Shown in pieces: positions 3,001 through 6,000 of a DNA stretch of 64,000 nucleotides. Position 1 is the stretch's first letter; every line of letters begins with the position of its first letter. This DNA comes from Escherichia coli. Lineage in GTDB: Bacteria; Pseudomonadota; Gammaproteobacteria; Enterobacterales; Enterobacteriaceae. Position numbers: made by a program. Location of the stretch: assembly GCF_024223415.1 (NCBI RefSeq), contig NZ_CP100500.1. One strand, given 5' to 3'.

Positions 3001-6000
3001 CTTCGGTACGCCGCAGATGGGACGCATTTTGCACCCATTCTTCGGCATTGCGATTTTCGTCGCACTGATGTTTATGTTTGTGCGTTTTGTGCATCACAAC
3101 ATCCCGGATAAGAAAGATATTCCGTGGCTGTTGAACATTGTCGAAGTATTGAAAGGCAATGAGCACAAAGTGGCGGATGTTGGTAAGTACAACGCCGGGC
3201 AAAAGATGATGTTCTGGTCAATCATGAGCATGATTTTCGTGCTGCTGGTGACCGGGGTGATTATCTGGCGTCCGTACTTTGCGCAGTACTTCCCGATGCA
3301 GGTTGTCCGTTATAGCCTGCTGATTCACGCGGCTGCGGGTATCATCCTGATCCACGCCATCCTGATCCATATGTATATGGCATTCTGGGTGAAAGGATCG
3401 ATTAAAGGGATGATCGAAGGGAAGGTGAGCCGTCGCTGGGCGAAGAAACATCATCCACGCTGGTATCGTGAAATCGAGAAGGCAGAAGCGAAAAAAGAGA
3501 GTGAAGAAGGGATATAATCTCTTTTGAACTTTAAGCTGAAAATGGCGCTGTAAAAGGCGCCATATTGTAGACAACGTGGGCTTTGTTCATGCCGGATGCG
3601 GCGTGAACGCCTTATCCGGCCTACAAACCGTTCAAATCCAATAGATTGCAGTGAACGTGTAGGCCTGATAAGCGTAGCGCATCAGGCAATGTTGCGTTTG
3701 TCATCAGTTTCAAATGGCGCTTTATAAGGTGCCATTTTTTATTGCGTAACCAGACGGCGTAATCGCGACACATCCACCGTTTTTTCAGCCTCTGCCAGAC
3801 TCCAGGCGTTTTGCAGATTCAGCCACATTTGCGGCGAACTGCCGATCACCACGGAAAGTTTAATTGCCATTTCTGGCGTCAAAGCTGCTTTTCCGGTCAG
3901 CAATCGGCTTGCCGTTGAGGGCGCAATTTCCATTGCTCTGGCAAACTCGCGCAGGCTGACATTAAGTTCGTCCAGTGATTCCTGAATAATGTCCCCCGGG
4001 CGGGGATGATTGGCCATTTTCATTAGTGTCTTTACTCTCAGTAGCGTTCCTTCTCTGGGAACACTATCATTATTGTTCCTTCCTACGCAACAATAATCCA
4101 TCTAGCCATTTCATGTTGGAGAGTGTGCGATGCTGCGACCCGAACATGGGAGTCGCAGCAAAGGCCTCTTAGCGGCGGAAATCAATCACCATGCGGCCAC
4201 GGATTTTGCCTTCTTCCATCTCGGTAAAGATGGTGTTGATGTCCGCTAACGGACGCAGGGCGACTTTCGGCACCACTTTGCCTTCGGCGGCAAACTGGAA
4301 GGCTTCAGTTAGATCCTGGCGCGTGCCGACCAGCGAACCGACCACTTCAATGCCATCCAGCACAAGACGTGGGATATCCAGGCTCATAGACTCCGGCGGC
4401 AGACCGACAGCCACAACACGACCGCCTGCACGGACAGCATCAACTGCCGAGTTAAACGCAGCTTTAGCTACTGCTGTTACCACCGCAGCGTGAGCGCCAC
4501 CGGTTTTCTCCTGCACAATTTTGGCGGCGTCTTCGGTGCGTGAGTTAATCGCTAAATCTGCACCCATTTCGGTTGCCAGTTTTAACTGCTCATCATTGAC
4601 ATCAATGGCGATCACTTTGGCGTTAAAGACATTCTTCGCGTATTGCAGGGCGAGGTTACCCAGACCGCCAAGACCGTAGATAGCAATCCACTGCCCGGGA
4701 CGAATTTTTGACAGCTTAACGGCTTTGTAGGTGGTGACCCCCGCACAGGTAATGCTGCTGGCCGCCGCCGAGTCCAGACCATCTGGCACTTTTACCGCGT
4801 AATCGGCGACCACGATGCACTCTTCCGCCATCCCGCCATCAACGCTGTATCCGGCATTTTTAACTGAACGGCAGAGCGTTTCGTTACCACTGTTACAGTA
4901 TTCGCAATGACCGCATCCTTCGTAAAACCACGCCACGCTGGCACGATCGCCTGGTTTTAATGAGGTGACACCTGGGCCAACTTCTGCCACCACACCGATG
5001 CCTTCATGGCCCAGAATTACGCCGGTTTTGTCACCAAAATCGCCATTCTTAACATGAAGATCGGTATGACATACACCACAACACTCCATTTTCAGCAGGG
5101 CTTCGCCATGTTTCAGTGAGCGCAGTGTTTTATCCGTAACGTCAACATGATGATCCTTCGTAACAACTGCAGCCTTCATAGTTCCTCCTTTTCGGATGAT
5201 GTTCTGCATAGCAGGTGAGGCAAATGAGATTTATTCGCCACTACCCAGTATGGATGAGATCTGAAAAAGGGAGAGGGAAATTGCCCGGTAGCCTTCACTA
5301 CCGGGCGCAGGCTTAGATGGAGGTACGGCGGTAGTCGCGGTATTCGGCTTGCCAGAAATTATCGTCAATGGCCTGTTGCAGGGCTTCGGCAGAGGTTTTC
5401 ACCGCCACGCCTTGCTGCTGCGCCATTTTGCCAACCGCAAACGCAATTGCGCGGGAGACTTTCTGAATATCTTTCAGTTCCGGCAGTACCAGACCTTCGC
5501 CGTTCAGCACCAATGGTGAATACTGCGCCAGCGTTTCACTTGCCGACATCAGCATTTCATCGGTGATACGTGACGCGCCGGAAGCAATAACACCCAGGCC
5601 GATGCCCGGGAAAATAAAGGCGTTGTTACACTGGGCGATAGGGTAGATTTTATCTTTCCATACCACTGGATTAAACGGGCTGCCCGTGGCGACCAGCGCG
5701 TTACCTTCAGTCCAGGCGATAATGTCCTGCGGTGTGGCTTCCACGCGTGACGTCGGGTTGGACAGCGGCATCACGATCGGACGCGGACAGTGTTTATGCA
5801 TCTCACGGATGATCTCTTCCGTAAACAGCCCGGTCTGTCCTGAGACGCCAATCAGAATATCTGGTTTTACATTGCGCACCACATCCAGCAGTGACAACAC
5901 ATCGCTGTCGGTATCCCAGTCACTGAGGTTTTCGCGCTTCTGCACCAGTTTGGTCTGGAAAGGCAGCAGGTTCGGCATCTTGTCGGTCAGCAAGCCAAAG

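Follow-up and report, generated by a model that had tools for sequence, protein, structure and literature searches.

The yddM gene of Escherichia coli is probably the antitoxin half of an ancestral HigB-HigA module that has lost its toxin gene

The yddM locus and the identity of its product

We analyzed a 64,000-nucleotide stretch of Escherichia coli contig NZ_CP100500.1 (assembly GCF_024223415.1), hereafter called the window, with a focus on yddM, a small gene that an initial annotation had described as an orphan antitoxin gene of the HigA type, that is, one with no toxin gene beside it. The gene and its neighbors are arranged as follows:

fdnI, ending at 3517, plus strand
yddM, 3739..4023, minus strand, encoding a 94-aa HigA-family antitoxin and Xre-type helix-turn-helix (HTH) repressor (open reading frame call and profile matches)
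adhP, 4169..5179 (stop codon 4169..4171), minus strand

The spacer between adhP and yddM covers 4024..4168 and is exactly 145 bp long, as first annotated, and yddM does lie beside a bacterial interspersed mosaic element (BIME), which is described below. Positions 3400..4400 are 100% identical to the corresponding region of strain SCU-316, in which yddM is annotated as WP_000781370.1, and ~96-98% identical to those of K-12 and O157 strains.

The description of YddM as a 94-aa HTH protein of the HigA type was borne out by profile searches. The protein matched the NCBIfam equivalog TIGR02607 (antidote_HigA) with 93.7 bits (cutoff 47.7), covering 80 of the 81 profile positions, and the Pfam family HTH_3 with 39.1 bits (cutoff 23; 7.6e-10). 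It is also identical over all 94 residues (100%) to the "antitoxin HigA" of PDB entries 2ICP and 2ICT, which a review credits to YddM of E. coli CFT073 (PMC3968373). Through this identity and the published description of the HigA dimer and its N-terminal HTH (PMC6987408), YddM can be assigned the Xre-type HTH fold, the N-terminal HTH and the dimeric state of the family. An in-frame extended open reading frame of 120 aa (3739..4101) was considered and rejected, as the extension begins upstream of the conserved promoter described below, is missing from toxin-bearing alleles and brings no gain in domain match.

The toxin gene is missing from the window

The open reading frame scan detected no toxin-sized frame in the adhP-yddM spacer or downstream of yddM. 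When the cognate toxin found in other strains (see below) was used as a tblastn query, only noise of 4-6 residues was obtained in the spacer and nothing at E<=1e-3 across the 64-kb window; the initial claim that no such frame adjoins yddM is therefore upheld. The suggestion that a degraded toxin remnant might lie in 4024..4168 did not hold at the protein level, as translated comparison of 3990..4200 and of the whole window returned only matches of 4-6 residues. Alignments of toxin-less with toxin-bearing alleles revealed a single surviving piece of the toxin gene:

4024..4029, minus strand, last codon and stop codon of the toxin gene, CAC TAA

This end reads CAC TGA in toxin-bearing and O104:H4 alleles. 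Members of the HigA family are encoded downstream of, and co-transcribed with, a HigB (PF05015) gene; this arrangement is not seen in the window and is found at the orthologous locus elsewhere. Without a toxin, the locus is not a functional type II toxin-antitoxin (TA) module in this genome.

The partner toxin is found at the same site in other genomes

When the region was compared by megablast with 5426 complete E. coli genomes, some of them proved to carry, between adhP and yddM, a gene annotated as "type II toxin-antitoxin system RelE/ParE family toxin". In strain CB209, it encodes a toxin of 92 aa and its stop codon overlaps the yddM start by 1 nt; the same arrangement is present in NRG857c. 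The CB209/CFT073 toxin is recorded as WP_000605676.1/WP_000605675.1. The CB209-type toxin matches Pfam PF05015 (HigB-like_toxin) with 64.4 bits and shares 56.5% identity with HigB, the ribosome-dependent endoribonuclease of plasmid Rts1. The toxin region was present in 1329 of the 5426 genomes, and the toxin-less junction of the window in 4077 (75%). In 545 toxin-bearing genomes (at least 10% of the 5426), the toxin is cut short at codon 36 by exactly the -1 frameshift of strain AGR4587, so that a full-length toxin gene is present in at most ~14% of genomes. The intact Escherichia toxin evolves under constraint, with 16 of its 19 variable codons differing only synonymously.

A scan of relatives, limited to one genome per species, yielded 41 loci encoding a YddM relative, and tblastn detected a HigB homolog directly upstream of yddM in almost all of them. 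Among the loci with a toxin are those of E. albertii, two other Escherichia lineages, 12 of 13 Citrobacter, Cedecea, Buttiauxella, Pluralibacter, Enterobacter, Chimaeribacter, Erwinia and distant deltaproteobacterial metagenome-assembled genomes; outside Escherichia and Citrobacter, at least 10 enterobacterial loci carry it. The toxin-yddM pair also adjoins fdnI in Escherichia, Citrobacter, Pluralibacter and one of the two Enterobacter loci. Separate toxin losses were observed in Citrobacter sp. FP75 (internal deletion) and C. portucalensis (frameshift), and the toxin matches of two Xenorhabdus loci are frameshifted or partial.

With the toxin present at the orthologous site in roughly one in four E. 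coli genomes and in almost every relative sampled, the window carries a derived toxin-deletion allele. We infer from this distribution that the HigB-HigA pair is the ancestral state, from which the window allele arose by toxin loss. The initial annotation had left two origins for an orphan antitoxin, a remnant of a lost TA module or a free-standing regulator, and had taken a conserved partner frame in other genomes as grounds to reject its reading. Such a frame exists: the HigB-like gene that overlaps the yddM start at this locus in relatives. It does not alter the orphan status of yddM in the window; rather, because the partner is conserved elsewhere, yddM was not born as a solo regulator and the remnant reading is confirmed. 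A free-standing regulator therefore fails as an account of the origin of yddM but remains compatible with its present-day role, considering the DNA binding reported in K-12 and the purifying selection described below.

It could also be argued that the cognate toxin is encoded elsewhere in the genome and works with YddM in trans. This is very improbable, as toxin DNA matches E. coli genomes only at this locus (1 to 2 places per genome), the tblastn search of the window was negative, and a TA inventory has the toxin absent from K-12 and HS (PMC7232551).

A promoter with two putative operators is retained upstream of yddM

Apart from the CAC-TAA toxin end, the spacer shares with toxin-bearing alleles only a 36-bp core, which falls in a region with the following features:

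4045..4092, minus strand, retained TA promoter with two putative operators (cross-genus conservation of half-sites and spacing)
4092..4087 and 4079..4074, minus strand, O1, TGTTGC-N7-GGAACA
4063..4058 and 4050..4045, minus strand, O2, TGTTCC-N7-GGAACG
4090..4085, minus strand, candidate -35 element TTGCGT (from cross-genus alignment)
4068..4063, minus strand, candidate -10 element GATAGT (from cross-genus alignment)

The array reads TGTTGC-N7-GGAACA-N10-TGTTCC-N7-GGAACG in the window, and the cross-genus consensus is TGTT[G/C]C-N7-GGAACA-N10-TGTTCC-N7-GGAAC[A/G]. Half-sites and spacing are the same in Escherichia, Citrobacter, Buttiauxella, Chimaeribacter and Erwinia; the N7 spacers, by contrast, show free variation. 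The window keeps all four half-sites and every spacing, with N7 spacers and flanks that are wholly different. Judged by sequence, the palindromic operators that HigA-family genes carry over their own promoter are thus predicted at 4045..4092. Placement of the hexamers was guided by the clear extended -10 elements of relatives, TGCTATACT in Chimaeribacter and TGCTATGAT in Erwinia. In K-12, genomic SELEX (systematic evolution of ligands by exponential enrichment) has located an RpoD holoenzyme site between adhP and yddM (PMC3946193).

Variants of the operators were observed in other toxin-less alleles. In the O104:H4-type allele, the 21-bp O1 segment corresponding to 4072..4092 (TTGTTGCGTAGGAAGGAACAA, minus strand) is replaced by its exact reverse complement, TTGTTCCTTCCTACGCAACAA. 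This change is a tiny inversion with TTGTT/AACAA at its ends, and it preserves operator symmetry; ~1061 records have identities in the range typical of this allele. E. coli CNR85I8 has a further 29-bp deletion (window 4053..4081) between direct repeats GAAGGAAC. Through it, O1 loses its right half, O2 its left half and the promoter its -10 region; yddM (WP_000781370.1) is intact. Up to 184 records fall in the identity band matching this deletion, which looks like the next step of decay. Of note, the junction of the toxin deletion in the window (4024..4031) gives rise to an ACA 6 nt ahead of the yddM start codon (AGACACTAATG), and yddM has been listed as a MazF-processed transcript at a position matching this ACA (PMC5001579).

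The region between adhP and the promoter has been replaced

Upstream of the operators, the window differs from toxin-bearing alleles by more than the missing toxin gene:

4093..4131, minus strand, 39-nt segment found only in toxin-less E. coli alleles, where it replaces 89 nt of the toxin-bearing allele
4132..4159, minus strand, hairpin just after adhP, GCTGCGAC-N12-GTCGCAGC (from alignment; the terminator scan gives no call)

The 39-nt segment directly follows the stem of the adhP hairpin, and its alignment to the toxin-bearing allele gives 30 identities, compared with 28.6 +/- 1.9 for shuffled sequence. The operator block of the window is identical to that of CB209 at 39 of 54 positions; the values are 44-46 of 54 for Citrobacter and 52 of 54 for E. 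albertii. Over the 107 bp upstream of yddM, the window is further from toxin-bearing E. coli than Citrobacter is, even though yddM itself is identical, and both yddM and adhP, which flank this patch, show ordinary within-species similarity. A first alignment had pointed to a clean microhomology deletion (ATGAA); this was discarded when a wider alignment showed that the CAC-TAA toxin end is kept and the flanks are replaced.

No source for the patch was identified: there is no paralogous copy in E. coli genomes, the matches on plasmids are chromosomal-type E. coli segments, and comparison with 44 related loci gave no match past the 22-bp palindrome. The patch may represent an old allele, may have been imported from a lineage outside the sample or may have arisen through complex repair. 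A 214-bp contig at 1x coverage labeled Clostridium sp. CMCC3677 (NZ_JAMQHS010000132.1) is 98-100% identical to the 5' end of E. coli yddM and the toxin-less patch, and is almost certainly E. coli contamination in that assembly.

The stem of the hairpin after adhP is kept in all alleles. Its CTGTTTTG tail in toxin-bearing alleles is changed to ATCGCAC in toxin-less ones (window 4132..4168 compared with 2409..2593 of locus L001), so that read-through from adhP into yddM may differ between alleles.

These data leave room for a tentative scenario, which we consider possible but not favored, in which the toxin-less haplotype is an old or imported 107-bp replacement allele. Only the four half-sites and the -10 region of the TA promoter would have been kept as all other bases changed, with selection repeatedly preserving a self-regulated YddM for a toxin-independent role, either immunity against incoming HigB toxins or control of a small regulon. 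In this scenario, the haplotype coexists in E. coli with intact and frameshifted TA alleles, and yddM is swapped freely among them. If this were true, the locus would offer a natural series of an antitoxin turning into a domesticated regulator.

YddM is retained and its variation is mostly synonymous

The yddM gene was found in 5412 of the 5426 genomes (99.7%), nearly always at full length. Rare pseudogenes were found only in the tail of the ranking, namely, a frameshift in KSC64 and a truncation by the Tn3-like TnAs1 in E6474. Constraint was assessed on nine toxin-less yddM alleles picked across the identity range (68 synonymous and 214 non-synonymous sites). Of 13 variable codons, 10 differ synonymously (binomial P against neutrality 9e-5), and the three replacements, at positions 80, 90 and 93, fall in the C-terminal tail, outside the HTH. 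The window and the toxin-bearing CB209 differ at none of the 285 nt of yddM. Near-universal retention together with mostly synonymous variation suggests that YddM still has a selected role.

These figures bear on the view that YddM is a functionless relic whose decay is still to come. The occasional pseudogenes in KSC64 and E6474 and the loss of operators in some alleles are in line with it, but yddM persists in 99.7% of genomes when the toxin is deleted in 75% and one frameshift alone affects at least 10%. The overwhelmingly synonymous variation and the conservation of the half-sites while the intervening sequence turned over also argue against a relic, which we regard as unlikely.

A toxin-independent role of YddM is plausible. 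One possibility, compatible with a TA origin, is that YddM now serves as a free-standing transcription factor, co-opted to act on targets elsewhere in the genome, and has been kept without its toxin for that reason. Chromatin immunoprecipitation with exonuclease digestion (ChIP-exo) in toxin-less K-12 placed YddM among 10 confirmed DNA-binding candidates, with peaks and a palindromic motif (PMC6237786), and its genetic-interaction profile clusters with those of stress regulators (PMC9283627); near-universal retention and a low ratio of non-synonymous to synonymous change point the same way. However, small Xre proteins often give few, intragenic ChIP peaks, and no phenotype links YddM to a regulon; we hold this possibility to be a minority one.

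The protein might instead be kept as an "anti-addiction" or immunity factor against HigB toxins arriving with plasmids, mobile elements or a recombined chromosomal allele. HigB homologs were found on 491 plasmids, 96 of them in Escherichia, a quarter of the species carries the toxin-bearing allele, and yddM alleles are exchanged between backgrounds by recombination. With that allele in circulation and recombination taking place, the loss of yddM would make a later acquisition of the toxin lethal. With no more than 56.5% identity to the cognate toxin, and mostly 35-50%, the plasmid homologs may, however, be too distant for cross-neutralization; we regard immunity as an improbable explanation.

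Proposed working of the locus

Taken together, the data indicate that yddM is probably what remains of an ancestral chromosomal HigB-HigA module of the Rts1/Proteus type, namely, its antitoxin and repressor half, that the toxin gene has been lost, and that YddM now is a self-regulated DNA-binding protein. In the ancestral module, the toxin gene would have come first, with its stop codon overlapping the antitoxin start. The toxin gene and the DNA upstream of the promoter would then have been removed or replaced in this lineage, which put yddM immediately downstream of the promoter of the module, where both operators are still intact. YddM dimers are predicted to bind O1 and O2 over the -35 and -10 elements and so to repress yddM transcription; with no toxin to neutralize, YddM would act as a small self-regulated DNA-binding protein. 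Because the original promoter and both operators are kept, and yddM is retained with mostly synonymous variation, YddM is most likely still made, self-repressing and under selection. By analogy with Rts1, where HigA alone represses through O1 and O2, the window locus is most likely a self-repressing yddM on the original TA promoter.

Some observations weigh against this proposal. A sigma-70 consensus scan called no promoter at threshold on either the window allele or the toxin-bearing allele. Moreover, ~184 genomes may have lost most of the operators and yet keep yddM, which argues that autoregulation from this promoter is dispensable. As yddM alleles recombine between backgrounds, part of the constraint on the gene may act in toxin-bearing genomes. 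Finally, the non-homologous 39 nt and an operator block more diverged than that of Citrobacter imply a history beyond a single excision.

It is important to note that the finding of an orphan antitoxin is correct and already known: a 2020 survey reported the antitoxin alone in K-12 and HS and the full pair in CFT073 and NRG857c (PMC7232551). Given this survey, the solved HigA structure and the HigA-family annotation at NCBI, it carries little weight as a discovery; a literature search by CFT073 locus tags and PDB codes returned nothing past reviews. New here are the population counts, the inference of the ancestral state, the conservation of the two-operator promoter and the unusual replacement patch. 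Across the 5426 genomes, the antitoxin and its two operators are kept almost everywhere and the toxin is mostly deleted or frameshifted. The locus is a clean natural example of the asymmetry expected of TA decay, in which the toxin goes first, and yddM offers a tractable case for asking why orphan antitoxins persist.

Terminator hairpins and a BIME separate fdnI and yddM

The 3' side of yddM carries the following features:

3540..3569, plus strand, left-hand copy of the fdnI/yddM terminator hairpin (direct repeat D1, 83% identical to 3712..3741)
~3585..3702, no strand assigned, BIME, an inverted pair of repetitive extragenic palindromic (REP) units between fdnI and yddM (inverted repeats I2, I3 and I7)
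3712..3747, plus strand, terminator-like hairpin and T-run over the yddM stop codon, right-hand copy of the duplicated hairpin (terminator scan and direct repeat D1)

The right-hand hairpin (3712..3737) has an 11-pair stem and the tail TTTATTGCGT, and its T-run extends over the yddM stop codon (3739..3741). The 3' end of yddM does overlap a terminator, as the initial annotation stated, but the REP pair it had included in that overlap lies beyond the coding sequence. The stretch at 3585..3702 has the characters of a BIME, namely, imperfect palindromic units of ~35 nt in inverted pairs with many extragenic copies. When this stretch was part of the query, E. coli genomes had a median of 39 matching places among the matches listed, and its matches in Rfam to the REP-derived naRNA4 and to ES036 were below the gathering score.

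The BIME is missing from O104:H4 and AGR4587, and its presence is independent of that of the toxin. In these two strains, a single hairpin, AAAATGGCGCTTTAAGAAGCGCCATTTTTT, occupies a spacer of 49-50 bp. As two hairpin copies flank the BIME and one is found where it is missing, the arrival of the BIME was apparently accompanied by a duplication of ~26-30 bp of hairpin. Of the two copies, the left one has retained the A-run and the right one the T-run; transcripts converging from either side would thus both include the BIME at their 3' ends.

Other rearrangements were observed at this site, and mobile elements have struck this small locus repeatedly. Copies of insertion sequences IS200/IS605 lie between fdnI and yddM in several strains, including an IS200 in CNR85I8. 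In a record labeled K-12 MG1655 (CP010441) and in one clinical strain, the 1001-bp query is spread over 1185 bp in two pieces, which suggests that ~184 bp have been inserted or duplicated there. The K-12 record GM4792 has a locus of normal length.

Comparison with known systems

The closest known system is the same locus in other strains. HigA of CFT073 (2ICP/2ICT) is the higA-2 of parE-2/higA-2 ("TA20") of the adherent-invasive E. coli NRG857c (PMC7232551), the same protein as YddM at 94 of 94 residues. We checked the published coordinates of TA20, and they fall on fdnI-yddM-toxin-adhP, the locus of the window. In CFT073 and NRG857c, the 92-aa toxin gene overlaps the yddM start, whereas in the window the toxin gene and 89 nt upstream of the promoter have given way to the 107-bp patch.

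HigB-HigA of plasmid Rts1 (Proteus vulgaris; PDB 4MCT/4MCX) resembles the yddM module in its toxin-first order and in the N-terminal HTH of its HigA (E = 1.3e-18). In Rts1, O1 and O2 overlap the -35 and -10 elements of Phig, and HigA alone represses strongly, the toxin being unnecessary (PMC12266136). The Rts1 hig locus is plasmid-borne with its toxin present, whereas the window locus is chromosomal, lacks a toxin and has its own operator half-sites (GGAACA/TGTTCC).

YbaQ of K-12 (PDB 2EBY) is likewise an orphan HigA-like HTH protein (E = 5.6e-9 to YddM). Its toxin, parE-1 in NRG857c, is absent from K-12 and HS (PMC7232551), and YbaQ also binds DNA by ChIP-exo (PMC6237786). It differs from YddM in being a distant paralog of 113 aa encoded at another locus.

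Finally, the HigB-HigA system of K-12 (YgjN-YgjM) shares its name and kind with the yddM module, pairing a ribosome-dependent RelE-family toxin with an HTH antitoxin, but the YgjM subfamily differs from YddM in having a C-terminal HTH (PMC6987408). Across four strains, YgjN-YgjM shows the reverse pattern, being complete in K-12 and HS and reduced to an orphan higA in CFT073 and NRG857c (PMC7232551).

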